Positions 3,983-28,710 of a DNA stretch of 32,000 bases are shown here, in pieces. Source of the DNA: Dehalococcoidia bacterium (GTDB lineage: Bacteria; Chloroflexota; Dehalococcoidia; Lucifugimonadales; UBA3495); the NCBI GenBank assembly GCA_965204685.1, contig OZ242004.1:1569757-1601756 (forward strand). Direction: 5' to 3'. Below the pieces are notes generated by a model. It searched no databases. It was not told the DNA's origin and was given only the letters and a program-made list of their open reading frames with translations. The position numbers and the translations under genes are program-made. Every line of letters begins with the position of its first letter. Position 1 is the first letter of the stretch.

Positions 3983-4004
3983 TTCCGTCAGTTGGAGGCG
4001 TCGA

Positions 4005-5690
4005 ATGTCGTTGAAAGCGGTTCTGGCCGGTTCCGCGTCCCTGCTGTTGGCTTTGGTAGTGGCTTGTGGTGGCGCCGCCCCTGCAGGGCCAGTAACGCCC
4101 GCAGAGCCGGTTGTGATTGAGAAAGAGGTCATCAAAGAGGTCCCGCGTGACGTCGTAGTCGAGAAGGAAGTAGAAGTAATCAGGGAAGTGACCAAGGAAG
4201 TGCCAGTAGTCAGAGAGGTGGTGCGGGAAGCTCCGAGCGAACCGGACCGTCGCCCGGGGAAAATCAGTTGGACCTCCGGTCAGTCCCTGGCCTCTCCTGA
4301 TTCTCACGTTTGGGCTGTAGGCGGTGATTTCCAGATATTCAGGAACACGTTTGAAGGGATTACCCAGGACACGGGTTACGGTACCTCCGGACCTGCCCTT
4401 GCGGAAGACTGGTCACTCGACCCGGACGACGTAACCTGGACGTTCAACCTGCGGAGAGACGTTAACTTCCACAATGGCGATCCGGTTACCGCCGAGGACG
4501 TCCGGTTCTCGATCTTGAGACTCAGGGACAGCCCCACCGGCAACTTGAAATTCCAGGCGAGGCATGTCGAGGACGTTATTGTCGTAGACCCCGACACGAT
4601 ACGTCTTGTGACCACAGCGCCTAGTCCCACTAACCTGCTCTTCATCGACGCCGGGCGAGTATATAGCGCCAAGCAAGCTGAGCAGGACGGGGAAAGGTTC
4701 TTCGAGAGTTTCATCGGCACCGGCCCCTGGAAGTTCGACGAATGGGTCCCGGGCACCAAGTTCAGTTGGACGCGAAATGATGATTGGTGGGGAGAGTTCG
4801 CCGATGGTGCGGCCACCACTCTCGAGCATCGACCGATCCCGGAACCCGCCACTGCGGTGGCTGCCGTGCTCTCGGGCGGTGTGGACATCGTGATCCGGCT
4901 GGCCAACGAACCCGCCGAAAAATTTGACGAGGCCGCCGGGTACCACTCGGTGTCCCGACCTTCAAATGCCAACACCGCCTTTTGTGTAAAGGCGGATACC
5001 CCTCCATTCAATGATGCGAAGCTGAGGCTCGCAATGGACTACGCAATCGATAGGAAAAGCATCGTCGAGGACATCACCGGGTTCGGCACGGCGCTGGCGG
5101 TTCGATCCTCGCCAGACTCCCCCTGGACTCCGCCGGAACTGGAACCCCGGTTCTTCGACGCCGAAAAGGTGCAGCAACTGGTCTCCGAGTCCAATTATGA
5201 CGACATGGAATTCAGGTTCATTACTCGCACTCGTCGTACCCCGAAGGACGTGGAGATCGCCGAGTTTATGACTGCAACCTGGAAGCAGCTTGGCCTGAAC
5301 GCGACCCTCGAGGTACTGGGCGACGCGGCGTTTTCGCAACGGCGTAAGGGAGGCGATTACGAGATCTTCCTCACGTCGTGGGGACTTTCTAATCCTCCAC
5401 ACAATTTCAACGCTCACATGATCGGCCATCAGATCGGGTACCACGCCACGCATCCCGACTTCCAGGAGTTGACTGAGGCGATGGCCACGGAGATGGACCC
5501 GGTGAAGTTCGATGCGATGGTGCAGGATATCCAGCGTTACCTTTACAACGACCCGGCCTGCTATCACATCTTCACGTACCCCAACCTCTATGGGGTCTCA
5601 GACCGTATACAGGAGTTGGTCAACATCCCCGGGGAGATATACATCCAGTACGACCAGACCGTGTTGGCGCCGCACGCCCGAGGCCAATAG
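4005..5690 (+). CDS. ABC transporter substrate-binding lipoprotein, family 5 (peptide/nickel, DppA/OppA-type)
   Basis: I prefer the start at 4005 (GGAGG 6 nt upstream) over the track start at 3975. Signal peptide with lipobox LVVAC-GG. Length and order (SBP followed by DppB/DppC-like permeases) fit the family. Confidence 0.9.
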   Translation: MSLKAVLAGSASLLLALVVACGGAAPAGPVTPAEPVVIEKEVIKEVPRDVVVEKEVEVIREVTKEVPVVREVVREAPSEPDRRPGKISWTSGQSLASPDSHVWAVGGDFQIFRNTFEGITQDTGYGTSGPALAEDWSLDPDDVTWTFNLRRDVNFHNGDPVTAEDVRFSILRLRDSPTGNLKFQARHVEDVIVVDPDTIRLVTTAPSPTNLLFIDAGRVYSAKQAEQDGERFFESFIGTGPWKFDEWVPGTKFSWTRNDDWWGEFADGAATTLEHRPIPEPATAVAAVLSGGVDIVIRLANEPAEKFDEAAGYHSVSRPSNANTAFCVKADTPPFNDAKLRLAMDYAIDRKSIVEDITGFGTALAVRSSPDSPWTPPELEPRFFDAEKVQQLVSESNYDDMEFRFITRTRRTPKDVEIAEFMTATWKQLGLNATLEVLGDAAFSQRRKGGDYEIFLTSWGLSNPPHNFNAHMIGHQIGYHATHPDFQELTEAMATEMDPVKFDAMVQDIQRYLYNDPACYHIFTYPNLYGVSDRIQELVNIPGEIYIQYDQTVLAPHARGQ

Positions 5691-5809
5691 GGCACGATGG
5701 GCGTCGGAGAAACAACGCGATCTGCCGGTATCGGGTTCGCCAATCGTAAGCGTCAAAGACCGGATGATGCCGTCGTGTCCGCTTCCGGGTTCGGATAGGG
5801 GAAAAGCTT

Positions 5810-6745
5810 ATGTTGCGCTATGCGCGGAGGAGAGCTCTTACCAGCGTGATATCGATCCTGGGCGTTTCGGTCATCGCTTTTCTCCTCCCGCGTTTGGCCC
5901 CCGGAGACCCCGCGTTAATTCTCATGTCGGACGACGCTACTGACGAGATCATTGAGCAAACGCGGGAATTCTGGGGGCTGAATAAGCCCCTGTACGAACA
6001 GTATTACGTGTTCATCGTGCGCGCCGTTCAGCTCGATTTGGGCACGTCGTTGGTCACGGGAAGGTCAACTATCGAAACCGTGAAGGACTTCTTCCCCAAT
6101 ACCATCAAGCTGGCTCTGGTGGCTTGGGTCTGGTCCGTCATCGTGTCTATCCCGCTGGGTATCCTGGCCGCCCTGAACAGAAACAAAATCCTCGACATAA
6201 TCATCAGACTGTTCGCAATGTTGGGCCGGGGAATGCCTAACTTCTGGCTGGGGATAATGCTGATTCTCCTGTTCGCCGTAGTCTGGAACATCCTGCCGGC
6301 CTTCGGCATAGGAGAGGGTTTCTTCGATCAGGCCAAGCATCTGATATTGCCGGGATTCGTGCTGGGATCGTCTTTCATGGCGCTCCTTGTGCGCATGGTC
6401 CGTTCGGAAATGTTGGAGGTTCTCAACGAAGACTACGTCAGGACGGCCCGGGCCAAGGGGCTTGCCAACCGGGTCGTCATTTACAGGCACGCCTTGAGGA
6501 ATGCTTTGATCCCGGTCGTCACCATATTGGGGTTGGAAATCGGCGGCCTGATCGGCGGCTCCATCATCACCGAGACCGTGTTCGCCTACCCTGGCCTCGG
6601 CCGGCTCACTGTACAGAGCATCCAGGGGCTCGATTACCCTATGGTCCAGACCTTGGTGCTTATTTTTGCGCTGATCTACATATCGGCAAGCTTCATTGTT
6701 GACATCATTTACGGCTACCTCGACCCGCGCATCCGCTATCAGTAG
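5810..6745 (+). CDS. ABC transporter permease, DppB/OppB-like
   Basis: 311 aa, multi-TM. N-terminal LxRLAPGDP motif typical of DppB/OppB-type permeases. Confidence 0.9.
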   Translation: MLRYARRRALTSVISILGVSVIAFLLPRLAPGDPALILMSDDATDEIIEQTREFWGLNKPLYEQYYVFIVRAVQLDLGTSLVTGRSTIETVKDFFPNTIKLALVAWVWSVIVSIPLGILAALNRNKILDIIIRLFAMLGRGMPNFWLGIMLILLFAVVWNILPAFGIGEGFFDQAKHLILPGFVLGSSFMALLVRMVRSEMLEVLNEDYVRTARAKGLANRVVIYRHALRNALIPVVTILGLEIGGLIGGSIITETVFAYPGLGRLTVQSIQGLDYPMVQTLVLIFALIYISASFIVDIIYGYLDPRIRYQ

Positions 6746-6795
6746 ATCGTTTTGGGGTCGTTGCGTTATCTCAGGGTGCGACCGGTAACGACGCT

Positions 6796-7692
6796 ATGAT
6801 CCAATCGGCGCCTCCTCTTTCTTCCGAAAGGACGGGCAGATCCGTGCCCAGGAACCTGAAGCGGTTCCTGGGCGAACGAAGCCTGCTCCTCGGAGCCGCC
6901 GTGCTGATCGTGGTGGGTCTCATGGCTGTGGCCGCCCCCGTGGTTTCCCCCCACGACCCGAACGCTATGAAGCCGGCGGACAGACTTTCGGAACCGGGAT
7001 TCGCGTCCGGCGGCGACCCGGCCTACCTTTTCGGCACCGATTTTCTGGGACGAGACGTGCTTAGCCGCATCATTTTCGGCGCTCGCGTGTCCCTAGTGGT
7101 GGGAGTGTTCGCAGTCTTGGGCGCTGGATCCATCGGCGTCGTCGTGGGAGCCATCGCGGGATACTACGGCAAGTGGGTCGACGAGGTCTTGATGCGGCTG
7201 GTGGACATGGGGCTTGCCGTGCCCGGACTTCTGCTGGCGTTGGTGGTCGTGATGCTGCTGGGCGCCGGGATGTGGAACGTGGTGCTGGTACTTAGCGCAA
7301 CCGGCTGGTTGGGGTTCGCGCGCGTAACCCGGGGTGTAACGCTGAGCGTCAAAGAGCGCGATTTCATCCTGGCCGCCCGTAGTTACGGGGCGGCGGACTC
7401 CCGCATTATCACCCGGCACTTGATACCAAACCTGATAGCTCCGATTATTGTCCTTGGCAGTCAGCAATTGGGAGTTTTCATCTATGCTGAGTCATCCCTG
7501 TCCTTTCTGGGTCTCGGGGTTCCGCTGGACACCCCAACTTGGGGCAGCATGATTGCCCAGGGCAGGTCGTATCTCGACACGTCCTGGTGGGTGAGCACCC
7601 TTCCCGGAATCGTACTGACCATCACGGTGCTCGGCGCTTTCTACTTCGGTGATGGATTGCGGGACGCGTTAGATCCGCGGCTAAGAAGATAG
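6796..7692 (+). CDS. ABC transporter permease, DppC/OppC-like
   Basis: 298 aa, multi-TM. FGTDFLGRDVLSRIIFGARVSL motif typical of DppC/OppC N-terminal regions. Confidence 0.9.
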   Translation: MIQSAPPLSSERTGRSVPRNLKRFLGERSLLLGAAVLIVVGLMAVAAPVVSPHDPNAMKPADRLSEPGFASGGDPAYLFGTDFLGRDVLSRIIFGARVSLVVGVFAVLGAGSIGVVVGAIAGYYGKWVDEVLMRLVDMGLAVPGLLLALVVVMLLGAGMWNVVLVLSATGWLGFARVTRGVTLSVKERDFILAARSYGAADSRIITRHLIPNLIAPIIVLGSQQLGVFIYAESSLSFLGLGVPLDTPTWGSMIAQGRSYLDTSWWVSTLPGIVLTITVLGAFYFGDGLRDALDPRLRR

Positions 7693-7740
7693 ATACACAC
7701 ATTGCGCGCTTGAGCCCAGCCGTACAACCAGCCCATCACA

Positions 7741-7778
7741 GGTCGATTCCGATAGGGGGCAGAATGGTACGCTAAGGG
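7741..7778 (+). repeat. solo Tn3-family-type 38-bp terminal repeat (copy X1)
   Basis: GGTCGATTCCGATAGGGGGCAGAATGGTACGCTAAGGG matches 33/38 with 12181-12218, which abuts the tnpA 3' end. It ends in the ACGCTAAG motif common to Tn3-family IRs. Similarity stops exactly at the inner boundary. Confidence 0.6.
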
Positions 7779-7792
7779 GAAAGGCGCCAGTT

Positions 7793-8707
7793 GAGTGTGT
7801 ACTAACCATTGGTGCCGGTTAGAGTCAGAGGGTGAAATGAGCAATAGAGCGGTGGATGCGTCCATTAGCGTCTGGTTCCAATCCATTCCATTGCGCCAGG
7901 ATGTTGAAAGCCGCGACGGTGTAGGCCAGATGGGCGCGGAAACCCTCCCACACTCGATGGCGCATCTCTTTGGTGTTCCAGACCACGGACATCATGGAGA
8001 AGGTGGTTTCCACCGCCATGCGCACGTTCCACTGGCCGCGCTTGCAGACCTTGACGTTGGCCGGGTCGCCTTGAGCCCGGTGAAAGCCGGTGTCGGTGAG
8101 GATAATCATTTGACCGTCGTAGCCAGCGAGCAGGAGCCGAAAAGTCTGGTCGTGGACATTGGCGCCAGCGCAGTCCCAATCGGTGATCAAGCCCCACTGG
8201 TTCTGTACGATGCAGAGCTTGCCACCGCTGATCCAACGGTGGTTGGACTTGCCTTTCCGGCCGATCTGGTCCGTCCGTCGCCCATCCCGCACGGGATGGC
8301 GCAGTTCCACCCCATAGCTGTCGGCCACGCCCAGGACGGTGGGTTGGGCCAGGAAGTAGCCGGTCCAGTCCTGTTGGGCTTGTAAGCGGCGGAAGAGCCG
8401 GGTGCGATGGGGCAGTTTGGGAAAGAGGTGGCCATAGTTGTCTTTGAGCCAACGGTAGAAAGGCCGCTGCTTGACGTTCTTCATAGCCCAGAGGACACCG
8501 ATGGTGACCAGTTCGCTGAGCGCGAGGACCGCCTGGGAGTGCTGGGGCGCCCGCGGCAAGGCATCGTCTATTTTGCAGTACAGTTCGGTGATAAAATCGG
8601 CGATGTTCACGAGGTTCCTCCGCTGTGGAGTGTCGTCAACTCACAGCATAGTGGAACCTCGTGGCATTTTCACAATAATCTCAAACCAGCACCAATGGTT
8701 CCTATAC
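7793..8707 (-). mobile_element. IS982-family insertion sequence (boundaries within about 10 bp)
   Basis: Inverted repeats AACCATTGGTGCCGGTT (7804-7820) and AACCAGCACCAATGGTT (8684-8700), 16/17 complementary. Possible 5-bp duplication CAGTT (7788-7792 and 8707-8711). Confidence 0.8.
7825..8610 (-). CDS. IS982-family DDE transposase
   Basis: 261 aa. N-terminal ITELYCKIDD..., SELVTIGVL and an overall layout I recognise as IS982-type. Confidence 0.85.
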   Translation of the reverse strand: MNIADFITELYCKIDDALPRAPQHSQAVLALSELVTIGVLWAMKNVKQRPFYRWLKDNYGHLFPKLPHRTRLFRRLQAQQDWTGYFLAQPTVLGVADSYGVELRHPVRDGRRTDQIGRKGKSNHRWISGGKLCIVQNQWGLITDWDCAGANVHDQTFRLLLAGYDGQMIILTDTGFHRAQGDPANVKVCKRGQWNVRMAVETTFSMMSVVWNTKEMRHRVWEGFRAHLAYTVAAFNILAQWNGLEPDANGRIHRSIAHFTL

Positions 8708-8739
8708 AGTTCGATTTCGGAAATGGAATCTGCGACACG

Positions 8740-8767
8740 CTGACAGCCCGCCGTTGACCGCCGGGGC
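8740..8767 (+). repeat. 28-bp direct repeat, copy Y1
   Basis: CTGACAGCCCGCCGTTGACCGCCGGGGC matches 12088-12115 at 26/28 in the same orientation. Confidence 0.7.
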
Positions 8768-8784
8768 GGGCACTTCTTGCTGCC

Positions 8785-9372
8785 CTATGGTTTCGTTTGC
8801 TGTAGCAACCAAGAAAGGACCCACTCGGCTACAACCACGCCGAATATCACACCGCCGAGCGCGATGAGTTCGGCTTTCCATCCTGCCTGAATAACGAGGA
8901 ATACCAGGATCACCTCCATGGCGACTAGTGCGAAGAGGACAATCCTCCTGTCTGCTTGATTCGCAATGGTGACACCCAAGCCGAGCGCCGCCGCCATCAG
9001 AGCGGCTCCGGCTGTTTGTACTATTGTGCCCCATGGAATCGAGGCCTCGGCCAAGGGTTCCCATCCTGATAGTAGGATCAGAAAGAACCCAAGGACGTAC
9101 GGTACTCCCAAGATGGCGGTCGCACGGTTTTTAGAGTTCGACGGCATTGCCTTCCTCGGCGGCACCAGCAGGTTTGTGGACCAATGGATGGTCCAGATCA
9201 GTGCCACCATCAAGAAGAAGACCACCGTGATCGTCCATAATGCCTTTTCATCCTCGCCTAGTAATGCCAATGTCACCACGATGATGCCGATGGCTATCGC
9301 GGCTCCGATAAGCAGTTTGGCGATGGCTATCAACGTCTCGCGCATGGATATTGTCTGCACTGACCTGCCCAA
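8785..9372 (-). CDS. hypothetical integral membrane protein (about 6 TM)
   Basis: 195 aa with repeated hydrophobic stretches. Starts 6 bp after the stop of the upstream small gene, so probably co-transcribed. Confidence 0.55.
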   Translation of the reverse strand: MGRSVQTISMRETLIAIAKLLIGAAIAIGIIVVTLALLGEDEKALWTITVVFFLMVALIWTIHWSTNLLVPPRKAMPSNSKNRATAILGVPYVLGFFLILLSGWEPLAEASIPWGTIVQTAGAALMAAALGLGVTIANQADRRIVLFALVAMEVILVFLVIQAGWKAELIALGGVIFGVVVAEWVLSWLLQQTKP

Positions 9373-9378
9373 GCGTTA

Positions 9379-9678
9379 TTACGCCCTCTGGCCCCTGCCA
9401 GGTTGATCCTGCACGAACCCTATCTGCCGGTTGGCCTCGTCAACCTCATCTTGCTGATCCTCGGGGCCGGTGACTTCCATGATAATCCTCACCACTTGGG
9501 CAGGGTTGTACAAAACGGCGGGGCGCCCAAAGGCGAACACTCCCATTGTCTGGTCCAGGAACCCTGCTTGAACCCTCCGCGTTAGGTCCCGCCGCAGTTC
9601 AACTTGATTTTTTGGGTCGTCAGGCCAATCGTAAAGATGAACCGTTTTACCACCATCCGTGGTGTGAACCGTCAGTGT
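9379..9678 (-). pseudogene. 3' part of a small gene interrupted by IS21
   Basis: The frame ...TLTVHTTDGGKTVHLYDWPDDPKNQVEL... continues in frame with an ATG plus AAGGAG located at 11990-12028 once IS21 and one GTGT copy are removed. Confidence 0.7.
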
Positions 9679-9845
9679 TGTCAACGCCGACGAAAATATG
9701 ACCCAGGTTCGCCGATCCGGGATTGACCCACCCCCTTCGATCACGCACACGATCGCCGGTTGGAAATTGACCCGCCGGCGTGATCGCGTCGCTTTTTAGC
9801 AAGATTAAATTGACCCACCTCCTTGTTTATTGCTCAGCGACTTTG

Positions 9846-11881
<2,036 letters not shown>

Positions 11882-11989
11882 TTTGTCTGAAGCACCTCCG
11901 CAGTGTGTCGGCGGATGATGCCATTGCCATCGGGTGGGTCAACTCCACTTCGGCGATTTTGCACATTTTAATATCGGCGGTGACAGTGT

Positions 11990-12013
11990 CAAAATCAATC
12001 TTGGTGTCGTCAT
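11990..12013 (-). pseudogene. 5' end (8 codons, MTTPRLIL) of the small gene split by IS21
   Basis: ATG at 12013-12011 with AAGGAG at 12028-12023 (9-nt spacing). Reads in frame into 9678 after in-silico excision. Confidence 0.65.
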
Positions 12014-12087
12014 TCACCGACGCTCCTTGTTTTGAGCCTGATCAAGGGGGATAGGACCTGCTGCGGCGTTATGACGCCTCTGGCCGG

Positions 12088-12115
12088 CTGACCGCCCGCC
12101 GTTGACCACCGGGGC
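12088..12115 (+). repeat. 28-bp direct repeat, copy Y2
   Basis: CTGACCGCCCGCCGTTGACCACCGGGGC; see copy Y1. Confidence 0.7.
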
Positions 12116-12180
12116 CGATTCTGGCAATGGCGGTCTTCACTAACGGTTTGCCCGAACCTCCGTTGCGACTGCGTCAATCG

Positions 12181-12218
12181 GGTCGACTCTGGTAGGGGTC
12201 AGAATCGTACGCTAAGGG
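12181..12218 (+). repeat. Tn3-family terminal inverted repeat (copy X2), adjacent to the tnpA 3' end
   Basis: GGTCGACTCTGGTAGGGGTCAGAATCGTACGCTAAGGG. The tnpA stop codon follows at 12221-12223, the usual Tn3-family arrangement. Confidence 0.7.
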
Positions 12219-12220
12219 CG

Positions 12221-14933
12221 TTATCGACGTTTCGGCCACCGATATTCCCCGGTCAGCAGTATGTGAGCCCAGCCCAGGGGCGAGATGTGGGCCAGCAGCT
12301 CGGGGTCGACCGTCAGGCCGTCGTACTTCCGCTGTCTGATCGCTTCGCTGAGATGCACGGTATTCCAGTAGATTACGATGGCGGCGAGCAGGTTCAGCCC
12401 AGCCATGCGGTAGTGCTGGCCCTCGCTGGAGCGGTCGCGGATTTCGCCCTGGCGCCCGATGCGAAGCGCGTTCTTGAGCGCGTGATGAGCCTCTCCCTTG
12501 TTCAAACCTGTGCTGGCTCGGCGCTGCATATCGGCGTCGAGCAGCCAGTCGACGATGAAGAGCGTTCGTTCGAGCCGCCCGATTTCACGGAGAGCGACGG
12601 CCAGTTCGTGCTGGCGCGGATAGGCGGCGAACTTTCGCAGCAGCTGGCTGGGAGGAAGGGCGCCGCTGGCCAGGGTGGCCGCGACCCGCAGGATGTCCGG
12701 CCAGTTCCGCACGATCACGTCCTCCCGGATCCTGGTGCCGGTCAAACCGATCAACGGTTTCGGAACACGCCGAGGTTCGAACACATGGAGCCGTTTCGAC
12801 GGCAGGTCCCGGATACGCGGGACGAACCGGTAGCCGAGCACGGATGTGACGGCGAAGACATGGTCGGTGAAACCGCCGGAGTCGGCATATTGCTCACGGA
12901 TGCGCCGTCCCGCCTTGGTCATCAGCAACCCGTCGAGGATATAGGGGGCTTCGTTGACCGTGGCCGGGATGGTTTGCGTTGCGAAAGGTCCGAACTGGTC
13001 CGAGACATGGGTATAGGCCTTGAGGCCGGGTTCGCTGCCGTAGCGGGCGTTGACCAGGTTCATGGCTTCGCCCTGGCGCGCGGCTGGAAAGAACTGGCCG
13101 TCGCTGGAGGCGGTAAAGCCCTGGCCCCAGAGCCCGCTCATGGGCAGTTGCGCTTGCGCCTCGATCACCATGGCCAGGGCCTGGTTGATAGCCTCGCTTT
13201 CGATATGCCAGCGCGAGAGGCGCGAGAGCTGGAAGAAGTCATGGATGTTGGAGGCCTCGGCCATCTTGCTGAGACCCAGATTGAGGCCTCCCGCCAGGAG
13301 GACGTTGAGCAGTCCGATGCGGTCTCGGCACGGCGCGCCCGTGCGCAGGTGGGTGAAAGCGTCGGTGAAACCGGTGGCGGCGTCCACCTCCAGCAGGATA
13401 TCGGTGATCCGCACCTCGGGCAGGCGACGGTAGAGGTCGAGCACCAGCTCATCGACGTCCTCGGGCATTGCGCTGGCCGCACGGACGATCCTGAGCTCGC
13501 CCTTCTCGATGGTGCCGCCGGCTATCCTGCCGTGGTGCGCCGCACGGGCGAGGCGTTCCAGACCCTCGCCCAAATGCGCCTTGTGTTCGCCCAACCACTC
13601 CTGGGACTGGTAAGGAACAGCCAGCCGGGCCGTGGTGTGCGCTGCTTCGATGGACACCAGGGCCTGTTTGACATCGTCGTAGCGCCGGGAGTGGGCCAGC
13701 CAGACGTCGCCGGACCGGAAGGCGTCTCGCATATGGAAAAGCGCGGCCACCTCCCAAAGCCGGCGGTCACCGGCGGGCCGGGCGTTCAGATGCTGATGCC
13801 ACCTGGAGTTCGCCGCAGGAAGGTCCGGGGCATGTCCGGCGACCCGGCTGCGATATTTCTCAACGCGGCAACGATGGGTTCGCCGGCGCTGGAAGTCTGC
13901 ATATCCAGCGCGCGCAACATGCGCGGCGCATAGCGCCGGAAGCGGGGCCAGCCCTCAACGACGTGACCCAGGGCATCAGCGGACATGGTGTCAGTGAGTT
14001 GCTCAGCCGCGGCGACAACGCCTTCGAGCTTTTGCCAGCCGCCGGCAGCAGCGACGGCCTCTCCAAGGGGCTGGCCATCTCCTTTTGCCTCAAGAAGCGC
14101 CGCTCCCAGCAGCCTGAAGGAGTGCAGCGTATCCTGCAGCACTGTCCTCGAATCCTGAAGACGCGCATCACAGCGCTGCTTAGCGCTCCGGAAGGTCTGG
14201 CCGACAATCCGGTCGTGGGTCTCGACTACGGCATCGGCGATGGCGCCGCGCCATTCCACGACACAGACGCCAAGGATGGCGAGACGGCGGTTGCTGGAAA
14301 TGTCGCGCAACCCCTCTGCGAAGTAGCGCTCCCCCTGGCGGCGAAGACGGGCAATGCGATGCGCAGGAACGGTTTCCAGAAGATCTGAGGGAAGGTCAAA
14401 CCCCTGCAGGAATTCCAGGCGGTCCAGAAGTCCGTTGATATCGGCCGAGTTCCGCCCCACCTCGAACCGGCGTAACCAGACGAACCGGCTCTTGCCGCCG
14501 TCCACTTCCTCGGTGAGCAGGCAGTCGAGCTGCCGGCGCATGGCGTCGTCCAAGCCCACCGCGATGCGCGTCTCTATCCGCCGTTCTGCGGCAACGAGGG
14601 CGTCGGCGCAAAGACGCTCCAGGACCGACGGTCCCGGCAAGATCACCTGCCGGCGCCGGCACTCCTCAACGAACCGCCGGGCCAGCCCCTCATTGGAGCG
14701 TGCCGGTTCCGCCTCGTCCTCGAGCCAGACCTTCAGGTCCCGGGTGGAACGTCCCGAGAACATCTTGTAGCCGTAGTGCGTCGGAGCTCGGCCAGGTGTT
14801 CCCAGCGTGTTTCCTCCCGTATCGCATACCCATCCAGGTCTTCGACGCCCATGCCAAGCTGGGCGGCAATGAAGCGAAGGACGCTTAGGGGAATGGCCTC
14901 CCCCGCCGCCAGAATTCGCCCCGGATACCGGAA
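12221..14933 (-). pseudogene. tnpA: Tn3-family transposase TnpA, decayed (N-terminally truncated, at least two frameshifts)
   Basis: C-terminal ORF 12221-13750 carries SSDGQ, YADSGGFTDHVF, LNKGEAHHALKNAL and LTGEYRW. The middle part is in another frame (13786-14763). The extreme 5' part (FRYPGRILAAGEAIPLSVLRFIAAQLG...REETRWEHLAEL) is in a third frame inside ORF 14733-15098. Confidence 0.9.
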
Positions 14934-17373: not shown

Positions 17374-17910
17374 GTGCATGAAATGGACCACCACGAGTAC
17401 GGCGACAATTACCAAGCGCATCTGCTGGAGCAATACAAGCTCTACGTGGAAATGGCCGACCGGATCAGTCAGCGCCGGGACCAATCGAACCGCTTCTACG
17501 CAGGGTTGGTGTCGGCAATCATTGCCCTCCTAGTAGTGATGGGCAGGATTGGTGTGTCGGAAAACACGTGGAGCGTTGCTCTGCTCCTGGCCGGGTTGCT
17601 CGGCGGCTCCTTGTCGGTCGTCTGGTTTATCAACCTCGGCTCCTATCGTGCACTCAACTCCGCCAAATTCCGTGTCATAAATGGGATGGAATCGCAGTTG
17701 CCTTACGCTGGATACAGCGAAGAATGGGCCTACCTGCGCCCTCCAGGGGGACCGCCAAGGTACTTCCAGCTCACGAGGATCGGACGATATGTGCCCCTGC
17801 TCACATTGGCACTCTTTATGGGGATCGTAGCCTATTCAATATATTCCATGATCCATGGCTTTGGCACCGCGGCTGAGCCGACTGCCCGCCTCATCGGAGG
17901 GACCTGGTGA
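17374..17910 (+). CDS. small membrane protein, SLATT-like layout (helical head plus 2 adjacent TM plus C-terminal TM)
   Basis: 178 aa, GTG start (an ATG at 17383 is also possible). LLEQYKLYVEMADRISQRRDQSNRFY helix, then two hydrophobic helices, then YRALNSAKFRVINGME and a final TM. Confidence 0.6.
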   Translation: MHEMDHHEYGDNYQAHLLEQYKLYVEMADRISQRRDQSNRFYAGLVSAIIALLVVMGRIGVSENTWSVALLLAGLLGGSLSVVWFINLGSYRALNSAKFRVINGMESQLPYAGYSEEWAYLRPPGGPPRYFQLTRIGRYVPLLTLALFMGIVAYSIYSMIHGFGTAAEPTARLIGGTW

Positions 17911-20369: not shown

Positions 20370-20669
20370 ATGGCTACGTACAACTGCAGGCCAATCTCGA
20401 CAGATGGGATCACACTGCCGGCGGAACTTGCAGCGCTCGTCGAGCGCCTTGCAGAAAACAATCACGATCACTGGGCGCGCCAGCGAATTGATGAGGGGTG
20501 GACCTATGGCCTTCAGAGGGACGATGCCCTAAAGACGCATCCAGACCTGGTACCGTATGGAGACCTTCCGGAAGAGGAGAAAGAATACGATCGGACCTCC
20601 GTCGTTGAGACCGTGAAGGTAATTCTCATGCTGGGTTACGAGATCGTGCCCAGGGGAACCCAAGACTAA
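20370..20669 (+). CDS. RyR (ryanodine-receptor repeat) domain protein, 99 aa
   Basis: LAENNHDHWARQRIDEGWTYGLQRDDALKTHPDLVPYGDLPEEEKEYDR...LGYEI is a near-textbook match to the bacterial RyR-domain consensus as I remember it. Confidence 0.85.
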   Translation: MATYNCRPISTDGITLPAELAALVERLAENNHDHWARQRIDEGWTYGLQRDDALKTHPDLVPYGDLPEEEKEYDRTSVVETVKVILMLGYEIVPRGTQD

Positions 20670-20673
20670 GACG

Positions 20674-22512
20674 ATGGCAAAATACCAGTCAGAATCGCTA
20701 AACGAGATCCGCAATCGGAGCGATTGCGCACGGGCGGTGGTCTTCCTGCACGGCTTTTCCGGCAACCGTGATGACACCTGGGATAACCTCCCATTTCGGT
20801 TCGGCACAGCTGATGGGACTTGGGATATCTACACGCTGGGTTACGCGACCACTTTAGGCCCGGACTTACTGGGTTTTTGGTCGGGTGATCCCGATCTTCC
20901 CATCCTCGCTACCATGCTGAGCACCCAATTTGCGCATGATCCGCTCAGGCGTTACCAATCGCTCGCACTCGTGGCGCACAGCATGGGCGGCCTGGTGGTA
21001 CAGCGAGCTTTGATGGACGACTCGGAATTGGCCGACCGTATGCGAACTGTCATCCTGTTCGGGACACCAAGCGCAGGGGCCCGCAAGGCGTCTTGGATGC
21101 AGAAATGGAAACGGCAGCTAAGAAACATGGCGCCCGGTAGCGAGTTCATCACATCGCTGAGACGGGATTGGGATGTCCGATTCGGAATTAACCCTCCCTT
21201 CGACCTCAGGGTCGTCGCAGGCGAGCAAGATCGGTTTGTGTCTGCTGAGTCCAGCCTCGGACCCTTCCCCAAGGAATTTCTTCATGTCATCTCCGGGGAT
21301 CACCACACTATGCTCCGGCCATCCGGCCAACGTTCTCCGACCATGAGACTACTGTTGTCGGCCTTGTGTGGTGAACCTACGGAGGGTGAAACCTCGGAGC
21401 CGTTCACTGCGGTGGCGGAGGTACCGGACTTTGCGGCACCTGCGCTGATCGACGAGCACGGAGAAAAGATGTCGGAGGAGGACATTGTGCGCGCCGCTCT
21501 CGCGTGGGAGCAAAACGGCAGGCGCGACCAGGCAATCGCGCTGCTTCAACGCTATCAAGCACTCGGGACCGACGTCCAGGGCACCCTGGCAGGTCGGATA
21601 AAGCGACTATGGTTGGAAAACGAAGACCCGGGTTCCGCACAGCACGCGCTTGACCTATATCGAGGTGCCCTTGACAGGGCACGAGAGAGCTGTGACAGGG
21701 ATCAGATTTACTACCATGCCATCAACATTGCGTTTCTTGAATTAGCTGCCTTCAACCGCGTCGGCAGCACCAGCAAGATGGCGGCATTGGCTCTTGAAAA
21801 CGCCAGCCTTGTTGAAGCGAGTGTGTGGAGCGTCGCCACTCAGGCTGAGGCAAACCTGTACTTGGGTCGGTTCGAGCGGGCTTTGGAGCTTTACCGCAGC
21901 CTGTCCGAAATCGAAACGGAGCCGTGGCAGTACGCTTCAACAGCTCTACAGGCGGGGCAAATCGCCATCAAACTTGACAACCCCGAACTGGTGGATAGTT
22001 TGGAGGAGATCTTCACGCCCACCGTAAACCAGGCGAACGGGATATTCGTCGGCTACAGTTCGACGGACGCGGAGTGGACAGACCGGCTTCGCCAGATGTT
22101 GGCACCCTTTCTGCGGGACGGCGATATCGAGCTGAAACTGTGGGTCGCCGACGAAGACGCTCAACCTGACGCCCTACGGCGCGAACGGCTTCAGTCCGCA
22201 CTCGAATCGGCAGGTGTTGCGGTCGTTCTGGTCAGCGCATCGTTCCTGGGGTCGGAGTACGTCATGGAGCACGCTTTGTCGCAGATCGAGAGCGTTGCAT
22301 CCGACGGGACCATCCAGCTGGCCTGGGTATACGTATCCCATGCCCCCTATGAGGTCGCGGAGCTTGAGCCGTTCGAGGCGGCTCACGATACATCCCAACC
22401 CCTGTACGCCCTTTCACGCCCGGAGCAGGACGAAATCCTTTTGAACATCGCGCGAGACATCAAGGCTGCAGCACTCGGAGCGACAGGGCGGTTCCGGTCC
22501 CAGGAACTGTAG
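20674..22512 (+). CDS. three-domain protein: alpha/beta-hydrolase, DUF4071-like helical repeats, C-terminal TIR
   Basis: 612 aa.
- N-terminus: VVFLHGFSG, nucleophile elbow AHSMGG, later GEQDRFV and GDHHTM (Ser-Asp-His candidates).
- Middle: LAGRIKRLWLE...ALDLYRGA...YYHAINIAFLE resembles DUF4071 (MAP3K TRAF-binding-like) repeats.
- C-terminus: IFVGYSSTDAEW...VAVVLVSASFLGSEYVMEHAL is TIR_2-like. Confidence 0.8.
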   Translation: MAKYQSESLNEIRNRSDCARAVVFLHGFSGNRDDTWDNLPFRFGTADGTWDIYTLGYATTLGPDLLGFWSGDPDLPILATMLSTQFAHDPLRRYQSLALVAHSMGGLVVQRALMDDSELADRMRTVILFGTPSAGARKASWMQKWKRQLRNMAPGSEFITSLRRDWDVRFGINPPFDLRVVAGEQDRFVSAESSLGPFPKEFLHVISGDHHTMLRPSGQRSPTMRLLLSALCGEPTEGETSEPFTAVAEVPDFAAPALIDEHGEKMSEEDIVRAALAWEQNGRRDQAIALLQRYQALGTDVQGTLAGRIKRLWLENEDPGSAQHALDLYRGALDRARESCDRDQIYYHAINIAFLELAAFNRVGSTSKMAALALENASLVEASVWSVATQAEANLYLGRFERALELYRSLSEIETEPWQYASTALQAGQIAIKLDNPELVDSLEEIFTPTVNQANGIFVGYSSTDAEWTDRLRQMLAPFLRDGDIELKLWVADEDAQPDALRRERLQSALESAGVAVVLVSASFLGSEYVMEHALSQIESVASDGTIQLAWVYVSHAPYEVAELEPFEAAHDTSQPLYALSRPEQDEILLNIARDIKAAALGATGRFRSQEL

Positions 22513-22852
22513 GGGAGCCGATTTGGATCCGCGACAGCGCGTCTTTGACATCTTGATCAACCGGCATGACCACAGAGAACGGACACTCATCCAGGCAATG
22601 CCCTAGCGAGGCAGGCCGATGCACGCCAAGGCCGCGCTCCGGTGAGCGGAGTGAAAATCAGTATCGAAAACATCAGTTGGCGCACGGAGATGATGAACGG
22701 CTGTCCGAGGACGGTTTTCACCGCAAATGTGCTCTGCGGATTTCAGGGCAATCGAAAGTCCTATGTTGTTCCAGCATAGCTTCGCACGTTTTGTGCTATG
22801 TTAGTCAAGCCGGCACGTGCTGCGCTTCTTGGACGTTCATGGGGATCACGCG

Positions 22853-23422
22853 ATGCGCTCACTACCCAACCGCCGAAAGGTTTTCATCAGCTTCCACAGG
22901 TCAGACATGGAGTACAAGGAACGTTTCGTCTCGATGCTGCATGGCCACGTAGTCGACGGATCCGTTGACACAGGCGACATCATCGACAGCAATCTCCCAC
23001 TGGACGAAATCCGGCGCAGGATACGGGACGATTATATAGCCGACGCCAACGTCACGGTGGTTCTGATCGGCCCATGCACCTGGCAGAGGAAACATGTGGA
23101 TTGGGAGATCAGTTCCAGCCTTAGGCATACCCGAAGCAATTCCAGGTGCGGGCTGCTCGGGATTCGGCTGCCGCACCATACCGATTTCCGCAACGAGAAT
23201 TATGATCCTCACTTGTTGCCTCCAAGATTGGCGGACAACTGCGGAGGTCCGGATCCGTACGCTCAAATCCACCGGTGGTCGGGAAGTTCGAACCAAGTCA
23301 ACACCGTCCTTCGCTGGATCGACCAAGCACTGGAAAGAAGCCGGCGGGGCAACCCAGTTAACAACAGGCGTCAGTTCGGGGAGAATCGGAGAGGTGATTG
23401 CAGGTCAGGTTGGCGAAACTGA
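22853..23422 (+). CDS. ThsB-type TIR-like protein (DUF1863), paralog 1
   Basis: I prefer the start at ATG 22853 (GGGGA 7 nt upstream). KVFISFHRSDMEYKERF, VTVVLIGPCTWQRKHVDWEISSSL and GLLGIRLP reproduce the ThsB layout. Confidence 0.8.
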   Translation: MRSLPNRRKVFISFHRSDMEYKERFVSMLHGHVVDGSVDTGDIIDSNLPLDEIRRRIRDDYIADANVTVVLIGPCTWQRKHVDWEISSSLRHTRSNSRCGLLGIRLPHHTDFRNENYDPHLLPPRLADNCGGPDPYAQIHRWSGSSNQVNTVLRWIDQALERSRRGNPVNNRRQFGENRRGDCRSGWRN

Positions 23423-23554
23423 TAACCGGGCGGCTCAGGATCCGCCAGTTGAACCGATCGCACTCCGCAAATTCATAGCATTGCGCGGCGGACCATAGCC
23501 CCTCATACGAGACCCCGCTTGGGACTACCCTGGCAACCACGAAAGGAACGTGCC

Positions 23555-23908
23555 ATGAAAACGCTGGGGCAGAGGATCAGGGAACTGCGGCAAGGGAAGG
23601 ATTTGTCCCTCCGTGAGTTAGCCGGCAAGATCGGCGTGTCGTCCGCGTTTATGTCCGATGTAGAACTCGGTCGTCGGAACCCGTCCGACCAGCACATGGC
23701 GGCCATAGCCCACGTTTTGGAGACCTCGCTGGAAGAGTTACAACAATTCGACACGCGACCGCCCCTGCGGGAATTCCAGAGAGCGACGCTATCGGACCCC
23801 GGCTACGGCATTGCATTCCGGCAGATGATGGAAAGAAATATCAGCTCAGAGGAACTCCTCCAATTTATTCGTGAACGTGATCAGCGAAGGCGGGAAGAAG
23901 GGTACTGA
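23555..23908 (+). CDS. XRE-family HTH transcriptional regulator
   Basis: I prefer the start at ATG 23555 (AAGGAA upstream). LGQRIRELRQGKDLSLRELAGKIGVSSAFMSDVELGRRNPS is a classic HTH_3 motif. Confidence 0.85.
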   Translation: MKTLGQRIRELRQGKDLSLRELAGKIGVSSAFMSDVELGRRNPSDQHMAAIAHVLETSLEELQQFDTRPPLREFQRATLSDPGYGIAFRQMMERNISSEELLQFIRERDQRRREEGY

Positions 23909-23910
23909 CG

Positions 23911-24614
23911 ATGCGGACCTTTCCGGCCGAATCCGGCCCCTTTTTGCAACGGTACCATTTCGCGGCCGAGGAATTTGAGGTAATCGCGTCGCAAGAGCTG
24001 CGCTCGGTTGATCTGCTTCCGGATGTTCCGGCGCCGATACGCGTGGACCGTTTCATCGAGAAACGGTTCGACATCGTCCCGGAATACGACGATCTTCCCC
24101 ACGGATTGGTGGGTTTCACGAGGTTCGATTTGAAGGGCCCGGCAGAGGTGGTAGTCGCGCGCGATCTGGCGGATGACGGTGGCCAGGCCGCGGAGCGGAG
24201 GATAAAAGCACCCTCGCCCACGAGGCAGGACACATTGTTCTGCACGGACAGCTATTCACGTCGCAATTACGGGACACTACCCGTCCACTGATCGAAATCG
24301 ATGTTGACGTTGCCAATCGAAAAGTTCTCTGCCGAGACGACAACGCGAGCAAGCGCCGTTATGACGGACGCTGGTGGGAGTACCAAGCCAACCAGATGAT
24401 TGGGGCTCTCCTGTTGCCTCGTGCGCTGGTGCTCAAGGCTCTGGAACCCCTGATGACCCTACGGGGACAATTGGGAATGGGCATTTTGGAAGAAGCGAAG
24501 CGTGATGAAGCGGCTGAGACTCTGGCCGATACATTCGATGTGAATCCCGTCGTCGCGCGCATCAGGATCGACCAGATATTCCCCGCGTCGATAGGCGGGC
24601 AGTTGCCGCTGTAA
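23911..24614 (+). pseudogene. ImmA/IrrE-family zinc metallopeptidase, frameshifted
   Basis: The first frame ends at 24291. The HEAGH motif (STLAHEAGHIVLHG) and the rest of the domain (WWEYQANQMIGALLLPR...) are in another frame that runs to 24614. Frames reconcile if the A4 run at 24204-24207 were A5. Start is 2 bp after the XRE stop. Confidence 0.75.
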
Positions 24615-24650
24615 AAATTTTTCGACCGTATTTCCACAATGCAAGCGGAC

Positions 24651-24679
24651 TTGCGTTGATATGTATCAAGTGAGATAAT
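24651..24679 (+). promoter_or_regulatory. possible sigma70-like promoter for the ThsB-like/E2-like pair
   Basis: TTGCGT (24651-24656), a 17-nt spacer, then GATAAT (24674-24679). AAGGAG at 24716-24721 lies 9 nt before ATG 24731. Pattern match only. Confidence 0.35.
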
Positions 24680-24730
24680 CAAATGGTGGGAACCCATTGG
24701 GAATCGAAATCTGATAAGGAGCACCAGACA

Positions 24731-25426
24731 ATGGTTGACAAGGTACGTCATCGGACGTTCATAACTTACCACCAGGAAGACCAGGACGAGGTGGACGAGT
24801 TCATCAAGACGTTCGACCACGAGCGCGACGTATTCATCGCTCGGGCGGTCGGAAGCGACGAAACGATGGAAGACCTGGTCGGTGGCGATGATGACGACTA
24901 CATCATGCGCCAGATCAGGGAAAAATACCTGAACGACACCACCGTGACCCTGGCCTTCATCGGGGAGCGCACGTGGACCAGGAAATTTGTCGATTGGGAA
25001 CTGGCCGCCAGTCTGCATCAGGGTCCGTCGGCGGGCAAACCCAATGGGTTGCTGGCGATCTTGTCGCCCAAGCTAACGAAAGCGATCCTGCCGGACCGGT
25101 TCGTGGACAACTGGGAACCCGGATACGCCCACTTTTACCCATACCCCAAGAATCGGACACAGCTCTCCAATTGGATCGAAGAAGCGTTCAAAGCCCGAGA
25201 GGATGAGAAACAGCGAGAACTCATCAAAAACGGCAGGCGCAAGCTCAGGCGGAACCTCTCTCCGGATCAGCCAGCCAGCCGGCCAACCGTGCAGCCCAAA
25301 CCGGACGGATCGTATTCTGATCCCAACAAGGCCGCCAGAACTGCCGCGGTCGCCACAGGAACGGCTGCCGCCACTCGTTCCGCGACGCCCCGACCGCCGT
25401 ACCTCCACCGCGACAAGAAGCGATGA
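24731..25426 (+). CDS. ThsB-type TIR-like protein (DUF1863), paralog 2, with a disordered basic/Pro-rich tail
   Basis: I prefer the start at ATG 24731 (strong RBS) over 24683. RTFITYHQEDQDEVDEF, VTLAFIGERTWTRKFVDWELAASL and GLLAILSP are colinear with paralog 1. Confidence 0.8.
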   Translation: MVDKVRHRTFITYHQEDQDEVDEFIKTFDHERDVFIARAVGSDETMEDLVGGDDDDYIMRQIREKYLNDTTVTLAFIGERTWTRKFVDWELAASLHQGPSAGKPNGLLAILSPKLTKAILPDRFVDNWEPGYAHFYPYPKNRTQLSNWIEEAFKAREDEKQRELIKNGRRKLRRNLSPDQPASRPTVQPKPDGSYSDPNKAARTAAVATGTAAATRSATPRPPYLHRDKKR

Positions 25427-25995
25427 ACTTGACATTGGACGATGTCCAGTGGCTCGAAAAACACCAGCCGCGTCTTGCGGCTGGTTTGATCGCGCCCTCG
25501 ATCGTAGGGACTTTGGATATCTCAGCCTACTACGACAAGGAAGCGCGAAAAATCGTGACGGGCCCTTATTTTGCCTTCGGACGCCAGGATACTTTCATTG
25601 CCGACCAATTCGTTATCGACATACGGCTGGAAGAAAAGGATAACAACGGCTGGCCCAAAGTCTACGAGGTTGGGCAACGGCACCGGTTGATTGCTGCTCG
25701 CGAAGGCATGCCTTCGGTAGATCTGCACTTTTATGCCGACGGGCATGCCTGCCTCGGCTTTGACTACCCATGGGATCCTCCTCTTACCTTGGACCAATTC
25801 ATGGCTAGCCTGGTCGAGCCCTTCTTTTACCGGCTGGCCTATGTGGGCCTCTACGGAATAGCAGCGGCGCGCGCCGATCTGTGGCCCGAACATTCCCATG
25901 GCAAGGCGGGTTATCAGGAGCATAAAAAGATAGTCGCGCGGGGGAATGCATCCATTCGCCGGAATCAGATTGGTGAACGGCCATTCGGTTTCTAA
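25423..25995 (+). CDS. hypothetical protein with E2/UBC-like active-site layout (prokaryotic E2-like candidate)
   Basis: 190 aa. ATGA overlap with the upstream gene. DLHFYADGHACLGFDYPWDPPLTLDQFMASLVEPFF resembles the H-x-N...G-x-C-L...W-x-P...(helix) UBC catalytic region, preceded by an N-terminal helix and beta-strand-like segments. From recollection only. Confidence 0.45.
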   Translation: MNLTLDDVQWLEKHQPRLAAGLIAPSIVGTLDISAYYDKEARKIVTGPYFAFGRQDTFIADQFVIDIRLEEKDNNGWPKVYEVGQRHRLIAAREGMPSVDLHFYADGHACLGFDYPWDPPLTLDQFMASLVEPFFYRLAYVGLYGIAAARADLWPEHSHGKAGYQEHKKIVARGNASIRRNQIGERPFGF

Positions 25996-26400
25996 GCCCG
26001 AATTCGCCGATGTGATTTGGTGTTGAGATTCAAGTGCGTGATGGGAGCCTCGGAAAAGGCAACAGGCCGTGATGCTGACCGGGATAGACGATGAGAGTGT
26101 TGTTACCGCGCGCATCGCCTCAAATCAAATATTGCCGAACTCGGTCGCGCGAGTCTCCTATCGGACCTACCGGCGAAATTGGAGAACTGGACACCGTCGT
26201 CGGAAAGACCCACCGCAACGCATCGGCCAACCCGCTCTGGGCATCCTTCGGGCACCCTGCACCTTATCGATACCCATCTTTGGTTCGCCAAAGGGCTAAT
26301 ATGTGAACTGCTGGCAGGCCGCTTTCGTTCGCCAGGATCACGGCGGCTTTCCTCGGCCCAAGCACCTTCGCCACGCCATTGCCACAACTCTCGTCCAATC

Positions 26401-27526: not shown

Positions 27527-28387
27527 CTATCCGTGCGCCAAAACCGGATTTGATGCGGGCCCGTCGCCGAACCCCAGCGCACGTCGCACCGTCTCGTCGC
27601 TCCGCACCAGCCGCACCGCCGCCGTGGGCCAGTCTGGGTTGTTGGGGTTGACCACCTCGTGGCGTTCCACGATCCCAGCCTGCTGGTACTCGTCGACCAG
27701 CCTCCGGCATTCGTGCTCGGTCCAACCCATCCCCCAATCCAACATCCACTGGTTGCACAACATGCTGTAGCCCACGAAGTTCATCCGGCCCTCCAGACGG
27801 TACATCTCCCGCACAAACCGCCCCAGAAGGTCATCAACGCCAGTATCTTCGACTTCAGGAACCGCTGCGACAGGCGCGTCCACGTCGCCGTGCTCCGCCA
27901 GTTGGATGCCCAGCTCGGCCTCCAGGGGAAACAGCGGCGCTGTGGCCAGCATGTCCCGCGACACCGACTGGCTGAAGGCACACAGCACGATGCGACGCCC
28001 GTGGAGCCTGGCCCGGTCCACCAGGACCTGGTAGTCGGCGTCTCCGGAGCCCAGAATGATGGTACCGCAGTCCTCCCGGTCCCGGATCCATTCGTAAACC
28101 TCCAGCAGGATGGCCGGATCAGACCGGTCCTTGCCAGCGGCGGTACGCGGTGCATGATACGGCACGATGTCGTGCTCCGCGAACTCGCGGCCATCGTCGG
28201 GCCGGAGCGACCAGTCGCCGAAGGCCTTGCCTCCCTTCACCTCTCCAAACACGCCGCCCACGTCCGTAATGGCCCGGCACAGGTCGCCCGGGCTGACCCT
28301 GCGCTGGTAGAGTTGCCCGCCCCGACGGATGTTCTCCCAGTCGATGGCGATCTTTACTCCCTGCCGTTGCTGACTCATGGAACCCAT
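27527..28387 (-). CDS. NYN/LabA-like (DUF88) domain protein with C-terminal helical domain
   Basis: I prefer the start at MGSMSQQ. VKIAIDWENI, GKDRSDPAILLEV and IILGSGDADYQVLVDRARLHGRRIVL reproduce the NYN/LabA acidic-residue layout. Confidence 0.75.
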   Translation of the reverse strand: MGSMSQQRQGVKIAIDWENIRRGGQLYQRRVSPGDLCRAITDVGGVFGEVKGGKAFGDWSLRPDDGREFAEHDIVPYHAPRTAAGKDRSDPAILLEVYEWIRDREDCGTIILGSGDADYQVLVDRARLHGRRIVLCAFSQSVSRDMLATAPLFPLEAELGIQLAEHGDVDAPVAAVPEVEDTGVDDLLGRFVREMYRLEGRMNFVGYSMLCNQWMLDWGMGWTEHECRRLVDEYQQAGIVERHEVVNPNNPDWPTAAVRLVRSDETVRRALGFGDGPASNPVLAHG

Positions 28388-28710
28388 TTCCTGCCCTGCC
28401 GCGCGAGGCCAGTCCCCAGGCCTGACGGAGATCTGCCACCCCACCCCAGGCCATAGCATGGCAGCCGACCCGCAGTCCCCGGCCCCGGCCGTAACCTGAC
28501 TGGACAACTGAGAGGGTGACAATACGATAGCCGCCCACAACGGTTATTCTGCGAGCGGCCAAACTGAAGGGGGTGTCGCGTGGGGCCACACCACACGACA
28601 CGATCATTGTAAGTCGCTGGTGGGCACGCCGCAATGTGGGCCGTAGTTATCCGGCATGGTTTCCGGTGGCGATGTGACAGCAGCGAATTTCGCAAGTTGA
28701 CCAGACAATT

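Follow-up and report, generated by a model that had tools for sequence, protein, structure and literature searches.

A ThsB-type TIR gene overlapping a lone E2-like gene: a candidate E2-only conjugation module in sponge-symbiont-type bacteria

CBASS-type E2 enzymes, those of the cyclic oligonucleotide-based antiphage signaling system, normally switch on a cGAS-like cyclase, and a locus in which such an enzyme directly follows a TIR gene raises the question of what the E2 acts on there. The locus lies in a 32,000-nucleotide stretch of a Dehalococcoidia bacterium genome (assembly GCA_965204685.1, contig OZ242004.1, positions 1,569,757 to 1,601,756), referred to below as the window and numbered from its first letter; all window features from 20370 to 25995 that are given coordinates here are on the plus strand. 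Two open reading frames (ORFs) make up the pair, one of which encodes a 231-residue ThsB-type TIR protein (24683/24731..25426) and the other a 190-residue E2-like protein (25423..25995). A first-pass annotation, made from the sequence alone, inferred that a TIR with a solitary E2-like partner would be an unusual conjugation-linked TIR system. The TIR partner is indeed unusual, and the solitary E2 is not, being the norm of the type II-short CBASS family. Our preferred reading, to which we assign a probability of roughly 0.6, is that the pair is the E2-only conjugation module of a type II-short CBASS in which a tail-tagged ThsB-type TIR has replaced the CD-NTase. On this reading the TIR would stand in for the cyclase and probably for the effector too.

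The E2-like protein and its TIR partner

The 190-residue protein matches six PADLOC E2 models (PDLC00872 with an E value of 2.1e-13, PDLC00865 with 6.7e-11, and four more), and searches of it against Pfam and NCBIfam gave no match. An AlphaFold2 (AF2) model built on a 32-sequence alignment, with a predicted local distance difference test score (pLDDT) of 88.7 and a predicted template modeling score (pTM) of 0.84, has its elements in the order of a UBC fold: an N-terminal helix, antiparallel strands, a loop carrying Cys110, a long helix, and two more helices. Weak as they are, the better Foldseek matches of this model in the PDB are nearly all E2 or UEV proteins (UFC1, Tsg101-UEV, UBE2N, Rad6, and UBE2S). 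The predicted topology thus agrees with the UBC-like fold that the first-pass annotation had proposed, and the two motifs it had quoted, DLHFYADGHACLG and YPWDPPLTLDQFMASLVEPFF, are both present and turn out to be the most conserved parts of the E2 family. Its further comparison of this region with the HPN-type catalytic motif of E2 enzymes did not hold up well, as the conserved element is instead a His...Cys...His set.

At 90% identity we found 73 clusters of the family, nearly all of them in ENA metagenome assemblies, and a search of 1.8 billion representatives yielded 554 relatives at E<=1e-3. Cys110 (codon 25750-25752) is invariant among 32 close relatives. Across 56 diverse relatives with identities as low as 22%, invariance is limited to four columns, Gly29, His102 (25726-25728), Cys110, and His159 (25897-25899), and the last three are invariant in the close set as well. 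In SmE2 of Serratia marcescens, Cys101 forms a thioester, His87 is needed for tail cleavage and linkage, and His152 controls isopeptide/thioester conversion, with the two histidines reported to be specific to E2s of E2-only CBASS (bioRxiv 10.1101/2022.05.25.493364). The invariant set of the window E2 appears to parallel these three residues, the spacing from the cysteine to the second histidine being 49 residues here versus 51 in SmE2.

The partner matches PF08937 (ThsB_TIR, E=2.9e-14) and several PADLOC ThsB models and belongs to a family of 144 homologous clusters. Its globular TIR domain spans about residues 1-165, and in Foldseek searches the N-terminal domain of the model matches a Bacillus cereus TIR structure (8fz9, probability 1.0, TM score 0.70 on the target) and ThsB (9b7d, probability 1.0). 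A Trp-Glu pair encoded at 24995-25000 contains the usual TIR catalytic glutamate, E90, which is invariant among homologues. Beyond this domain the homologue alignment defines a C-terminal tail of about 65 residues (roughly 166-231, 25226..25423) that runs from a conserved basic stretch, KNGRRKLRRNLS, through PK.DGSY and a variable Ala/Thr-rich linker to P-R-x-P-Y-L and then to unconserved residues. P-R-x-P-Y-L is invariant in the TIR alignment, and the 2-11 unconserved residues after it overlap the start of the E2. In the window the motif reads PRPPYL (25388-25405) and is followed by six variable residues. The pattern P[RKS].P[YWF][LAIVM] is found near the C-terminus in 84 of 120 TIR homologues, the exceptions being mostly fragments or single substitutions. 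Three lysines of the TIR, K85, K166, and K171, are invariant or nearly so.

We also modeled the TIR joined to the E2 as a single AF2 chain with an unpaired block alignment. Tail residues of about 176-200 (25256-25330, LSPDQPASRPTVQPKPDGSYSDPN) were predicted there at pLDDT 74-79, and this conserved segment, in which Pro189 and Gly193 are invariant, may serve as a second element for docking or processing.

Linkage of the pair and the tag shared with cyclases

The TGA stop of the TIR gene and the ATG start of the E2 gene overlap as ATGA at 25423-25426, just as the first-pass annotation had described. An identical or near-identical overlap is present in six related loci (L001, L005, L007, L008, L053, and L058 in our numbering), indicating that translation of the TIR and the E2 is coupled. 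A TIR of about 230 residues is encoded directly 5' of the E2 in the window and in L001-L005, L007-L009, L045, L053-L056, L058, and L059. At least 10 independent loci have the pair, every one of them from a sponge-symbiont-type metagenome, and for 23 further E2 clusters the longest contig is exactly the same size as that of a TIR cluster, a proxy for a shared contig. Close homologues of the E2 consistently adjoin the same TIR, and the overlapping pair is found on many independent contigs. None of the three outcomes that the first-pass annotation would have taken as refutation (no UBC-like fold, a cysteine that varies among homologues, homologues away from TIR genes) was observed.

The full layout of the window is reproduced in L001-L004 (E2 87% identical) and L058 (94%) in the order RyR protein, hydrolase-TPR-S-TIR protein, short ThsB, helix-turn-helix (HTH) protein, M78 peptidase, long TIR, and E2. 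Only the TIR-E2 core is kept in L005, L007, L008, L009, L045, L053, L054, and L055/L056, where identity falls to 62% for the TIR and 44% for the E2 and the flanks vary among restriction-modification genes, GmrSD genes, integrases, and ABC transporters. Some copies are disrupted: in L055/L056 (5018-7717) an IS66 transposase lies within the TIR gene and a 108-residue TIR fragment is split off from the E2, and in L045 the E2 is split. A gene-by-gene comparison of neighborhoods took in 10 TIR-E2 loci. The E2 and the long TIR were present in all 10, the HTH regulator and its peptidase-like partner in 9-10, the second, short ThsB in 7, and the RyR and hydrolase-TPR-S-TIR genes in 4, as was a protein family of about 175 residues. 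A third gene that could serve as a conserved effector was sought across these loci, and none was common to all 10.

The first-pass annotation had also remarked that no E1, JAB, or ubiquitin-like (Ubl) partner lies nearby. In Pfam and PADLOC searches none was found among ORFs of at least 110 residues in the 32-kb window, none was found near the related loci, and neither a ThiF/E1 domain (as in Cap2) nor a JAB domain (as in Cap3) was found in the window or in the genes adjoining related TIR-E2 pairs. Such an absence is expected because E2-only CBASS enzymes are reported to process and ligate the tail themselves without an E1 or JAB (bioRxiv 10.1101/2022.05.25.493364; PMC12948482).

The wider family of this E2 places the pair in context. 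A scan of one genome per species recovered 46 loci with the family, all in metagenome-assembled genomes (MAGs) of sponge-symbiont-type lineages (Dehalococcoidia, Poribacteria, Latescibacterota, Entotheonella, Caldilineaceae, and Spongiisociaceae). The E2 comes after a TIR in 4 of the 46. In about 38 it comes after a CD-NTase of 315-330 residues or forms a fusion protein of 540-578 residues with a CD-NTase, these members being 37-45% identical. The L006 locus is a textbook type II-short CBASS with a patatin phospholipase effector, a cyclase, and an E2 that also matches the E1-E2 model. A neighbor-joining tree gathers the TIR-linked E2s into one long-branched clade. Every CD-NTase-linked E2 (L006, L010-L049) carries a SEC-C zinc motif (CPCGSG.KYKKC) at its C-terminus, and no TIR-linked E2 (the window, the TIR loci among L001-L009, and L053-L055) does. 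Judged from the tree and this motif, the TIR-linked clade is of single origin and has lost SEC-C, and the simplest history would be that a TIR replaced the cyclase once. Since all of the genome loci are in sponge-symbiont-type MAGs and TIR-E2 loci occur together with a CBASS-E2 locus in a single ENA sample (ERZ25067264), the distribution suggests that the E2 family has been exchanged within one sponge-symbiont community.

The most informative result came from the tails of the two client types. In 27 stand-alone CD-NTases of the sister clade, a low-complexity linker is followed at the C-terminus by ..(T)PRKPYA-R or a close variant. The PR.PYL tail of the TIRs appears to parallel this ending even though the two enzymes have unrelated folds. 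In the natural fusions of CD-NTase and E2, P.KP[WY]A is retained within the linker, some 15 residues ahead of the first E2 helix. These fusions (L014, L015, L017, L023, L048, and L049, at about 5000-6650) look as if the two overlapping genes were read through, a hint that processing occurs in cis. In the Serratia cyclase, SmcGAS, the tail reads P400-K401...Y405-G406-E407, and its E2 removes E407 and attaches G406, a position at which Ala was tolerated and Val and Leu were not (bioRxiv 10.1101/2022.05.25.493364). That two unrelated enzymes encoded before the same E2 family share a tag is hard to explain unless the E2 acts on the tag. One TIR variant is in keeping with this. It is a 314-residue fusion of the same TIR family with an N-terminal HTH, in L057 (6001-6945, P0137 plus five similar clusters), and it has neither the PR.PYL ending nor an E2 downstream. 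It directly adjoins a phage-type integrase gene, so the fusion may be a truncated remnant.

Proposed activity and competing explanations

The likeness to the E2-CBASS of Serratia marcescens (cGAS/CdnG-SmE2) extends beyond the tag. Both have a stand-alone UBC-like protein encoded directly after the client enzyme, fall under the same PADLOC E2 models, and combine an invariant Cys flanked by two invariant His with a client tail that would consist of a short conserved motif and then dispensable residues. Neither has an E1 or JAB, both are under CapH/CapP-type regulation, and the nearest relatives of the window E2 sit in genuine E2-CBASS operons, CD-NTase-E2 fusions included. The differences lie first of all in the client, which here is a ThsB-type TIR, upstream in the window and in all close relatives, with no CD-NTase and no separate effector gene conserved with the pair. 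Gly or Ala gives way to Leu at the presumed attachment position, the SEC-C zinc motif that the sister E2s carry has been lost, a lysine like K159 of SmE2 is not conserved, and the window E2 has no detectable sequence match to solved structures. Neither a SMODS/CD-NTase domain nor a CBASS effector was found among the window ORFs with Pfam and PADLOC. The pair is not a CBASS because it has no cyclase, and a CBASS operon with a TIR effector was rejected as an identification for the same reason.

Other conjugation-linked and TIR-based systems offer further comparisons. Bil, 6E, and other Ubl-E1-E2-JAB systems likewise place a UBC-fold enzyme in an antiphage context, but the pair has no Ubl, E1, or JAB, which led us to reject a Bil-type or Cap2/Cap3-type system, and its modifier would be the TIR's own tail. 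Canonical Thoeris shares a ThsB-family TIR with a catalytic Glu in a defense island with several ThsB paralogues. It has no E2 partner and no long conserved tail, whereas the pair has both, and no ThsA-type or other signal-binding effector (SLOG-SIR2 or Macro-TM) was found in the window or across the 10 loci. The closest published parallel in design is a Thoeris that joins a tailed ThsB-type TIR with ubiquitin-like conjugation machinery derived from CBASS. That system has the E1-E2 fusion Cap2, the JAB peptidase Cap3, a tail ending in Gly, and a Thoeris effector (Yirmiya et al., bioRxiv 10.64898/2025.12.03.692087). The TIR-E2 pair, in contrast, has one E2 from another family and a PR.PYL tail, and no effector could be recognized. 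For Cap2 together with ThsB, that study was the only primary paper that we found, the rest being reviews. The literature that we searched, with incomplete coverage of subscription journals, contained no account of a TIR with a single E2 as its partner, and full-text searches turned up no paper that brings E2-CBASS and TIR together. Control of a TIR by an E2 alone therefore looks undescribed, while Thoeris with Cap2 and Cap3 is already published.

We infer the chemical steps, the cleavage site, the acceptor lysine, and the output of the TIR by analogy with the cyclase systems. CapH would repress the TIR-E2 promoter until it is cleaved by CapP, a peptidase that DNA damage or single-stranded DNA activates, and translational coupling would then allow the TIR and E2 to be produced together. 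Cys110 of the E2, helped by His102 and His159, would bind the TIR tail and clip the residues after PR.PYL. The E2 would hold the TIR as a thioester on Cys110 and pass it to a lysine, giving TIR-E2 species, TIR-TIR chains, or conjugates of the TIR with a target. Linkage between TIRs is at least possible because the TIR has the invariant or near-invariant K85, K166, and K171, whereas no lysine is conserved in the TIR-linked E2s. Oligomerization is generally required for TIR activity, and conjugation would raise the local concentration or oligomerization of the TIR and thereby switch on cleavage of nicotinamide adenine dinucleotide (NAD+). The TIR itself is the most likely effector because no third gene is conserved with the pair, and it would act through NAD+ depletion and abortive infection.

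A number of observations weigh against this account. The Foldseek scores of the E2 model are low (best E=0.02, TM score 0.38-0.44), and searches of PDB sequences with the single E2, a 32-member profile, and a 56-member profile gave either no match or matches to SEC-C motifs only, and no E2, SmE2 included. The proposed homology to the characterized SmE2 is drawn from the PADLOC models and operon position. Alignments of relatives show no conserved lysine equivalent to K159 of SmE2 in the TIR-linked E2s. The TIR residue equivalent to G406 of SmcGAS is Leu, and since G406L abolished linkage in Serratia, the exact site or pocket must differ here. As another possible attachment site, PK.DG|SY offers its invariant Gly193. 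The joined TIR-E2 model left PR.PYL undocked (residues 202-230 at pLDDT below 50, pTM 0.45), which counts weakly in an unpaired single-chain prediction. Other TIR genes cluster nearby, and an effector for Thoeris-like signaling may have been missed among them or elsewhere. Lastly, the CapP-like gene of the window is frameshifted, as described below, and the window copy may be locked in a repressed state unless the deletion at 24204 is an assembly error.

The presence of those other TIR genes bears on the possibility that the pair signals in the manner of Thoeris, with the tail-tagged TIR making a signal nucleotide (a cyclic ADP-ribose isomer or similar) for a distant or unrecognized effector and the E2 priming or tuning it as Cap2 does for CD-NTases. 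The known members of the ThsB family are signal producers, Thoeris operons with Cap2, Cap3, and a Gly-tailed ThsB exist, and other ThsB genes and small unknown proteins abound in the loci, among them PDC-M50A/B and the family of about 175 residues. We consider this explanation unlikely given that no candidate effector is conserved with the pair in the 10 loci, that L005, L009, and L045 show no second TIR module in the stretches compared, and that searches of the window turned up neither SLOG, Macro, nor SIR2, nor any further ThsA-type domain of known kind.

The E2 could also do less than we propose and serve only as a cysteine protease that removes an autoinhibitory TIR tail without conjugation, or as a covalent brake that traps the TIR one to one until a phage cue arrives. 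Its His-Cys-His set is protease-like, the TIR-linked E2s lack a conserved acceptor lysine, and SmE2 has been shown to act as a protease and to bind its cyclase 1:1 in a stable complex (bioRxiv 10.1101/2022.05.25.493364; PMC12948482). The characterized system, however, couples cleavage to a thioester, an isopeptide, and activating chain formation, and a long conserved basic part of the tail with K166 and K171 would be needless for mere clipping, which makes a protease or brake distinctly improbable in our estimation. Still less can be said for the two genes being mere neighbors, in which an E2 left from a decayed CBASS operon had a TIR gene inserted next to it and the proteins do not interact. 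The region is heavily rearranged by insertion sequence (IS) and Tn3 elements, capP of the window is frameshifted, and relatives are disrupted by the IS66 insertion and the split E2 already described. Against this, the overlapping pair is kept in differing flanks at 62% TIR and 44% E2 identity, the catalytic residues are all intact, and the TIR carries a tail motif specific to the E2 family, so that we give this explanation hardly any weight. Chance adjacency was likewise rejected on the conserved linkage and tail motif.

Within the E2-only conjugation reading, a bolder and more tentative version can be formulated, which we think possible and would not bet on. The pair would be a two-enzyme abortive-infection module in which a protease-ligase E2, needing no E1, E3, deubiquitinase, or separate Ubl, stitches TIRs into covalent chains by way of a portable PR.PY-L/A tag, and covalent oligomerization turns on NAD+ destruction. 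If true, the tag and the E2 would form an exchangeable activation cassette that moved in evolution from a cGAS-like cyclase to a TIR. E2-only control has so far been worked out for one client type, the CD-NTases, and a client swap with the tail motif retained would show that E2 and tag are a portable regulatory cassette. The comparison would also define a minimal tag, PR.PY with A or L after it. An E2 that builds covalent chains would activate TIRs by a new route, and the pair with its regulators, having no separate effector, would rank among the smallest conjugation-dependent immune modules.

Expression signals, regulators, and the surrounding island

The real start of the TIR gene is taken to be the ATG at 24731 because homologues begin M-x-D-x-VRHKTF. 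The strong ribosome-binding site noted in the first-pass annotation is found as AAGGAG at 24716-24721, 9 nt upstream of this ATG, and all 10 upstream regions that we compared have an equivalent. The annotation also gave the pair its own promoter-like element. A scan of 23400-26400 for the sigma-70 consensus returned zero matches, so that part of the claim finds no echo in the scan. The element TTGCGT-17 nt-GATAAT (24651-24679), which was recognized by eye and falls below the scan threshold, is conserved in L001, L002, and L008, and more distant loci have a clear TTGACA-17-TATACT promoter at the equivalent position. A promoter belonging to the pair is thus plausible on sequence grounds. An inverted repeat, GCAAG-cgga-CTTGC (24641-24654), overlaps the promoter-like element and is kept in the same three loci, making it a candidate operator for CapH.

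The pair is not isolated, as it sits behind CapH/CapP-type regulators inside a TIR-rich defense island. The CapH-like HTH repressor gene (23555..23908) matches Pfam HTH_31/HTH_3 and the PADLOC capH model (PDLC04142, E=4e-12). Its ORF is listed from a TTG at 23519, and the 117-residue homologues correspond to the ATG at 23555. The gene adjoins the pair also in L001-L003, L008, and L058. Next to it and upstream of the pair lies the gene for a CapP-like (ImmA/IrrE, M78) HExxH metallopeptidase (23911..24614), an arrangement of repressor and adjacent peptidase that is the one expected for CapH and CapP. CapP is a peptidase that becomes more active with single-stranded DNA and cleaves CapH (bioRxiv 10.1101/2022.04.27.489752). 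Intact CapP-like homologues of 234 residues occur in L001, L008, and L058, with the L001 protein matching Peptidase_M78 (1.2e-5), and the PADLOC capP model is matched by homologues in L001, L053, and L054. Compared with L001 and L058, the window gene carries a deletion of 1 nt at 24204, which leaves two ORFs and puts HEAGH out of frame, and it is either a pseudogene or the product of an assembly error. In L055/L056 the regulator is a single 350-residue HTH-M78 fusion.

Upstream of the regulators, the second, short ThsB-type TIR gene (22817..23422) matches PF08937 (3.9e-17) and PADLOC PDC-M50B (1.7e-8) and is probably a separate module. The M50A partner of this short ThsB (E=7e-30) lies next to it in L053 (3825-4849) and is absent from the window. 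Before it, Pfam identifies an RyR-domain protein (20370-20669) and a 612-residue alpha/beta-hydrolase-TPR-S-TIR protein (20674-22512). Both genes recur beside the pair in L001-L003, L008, L054, and L058, and they may form a separate conflict system or be functionally connected to the pair. An 8xMP octameric membrane protein (E=8e-33) is encoded at 17374-17910, upstream of the island. Mobile elements pile up at 600-14800, with DDE transposases at 630-1712 and 7825-8610, IS21 istA/istB at 9846-11881, a split Tn3 transposase at 12221-14763, and an apparently truncated peptide ABC transporter (3975-7692) in their midst. Downstream of the island, an NYN-domain protein is encoded on the minus strand (27527-28540), and a rise in GC content from about 0.57 to 0.64 at about 26000 marks the island edge.

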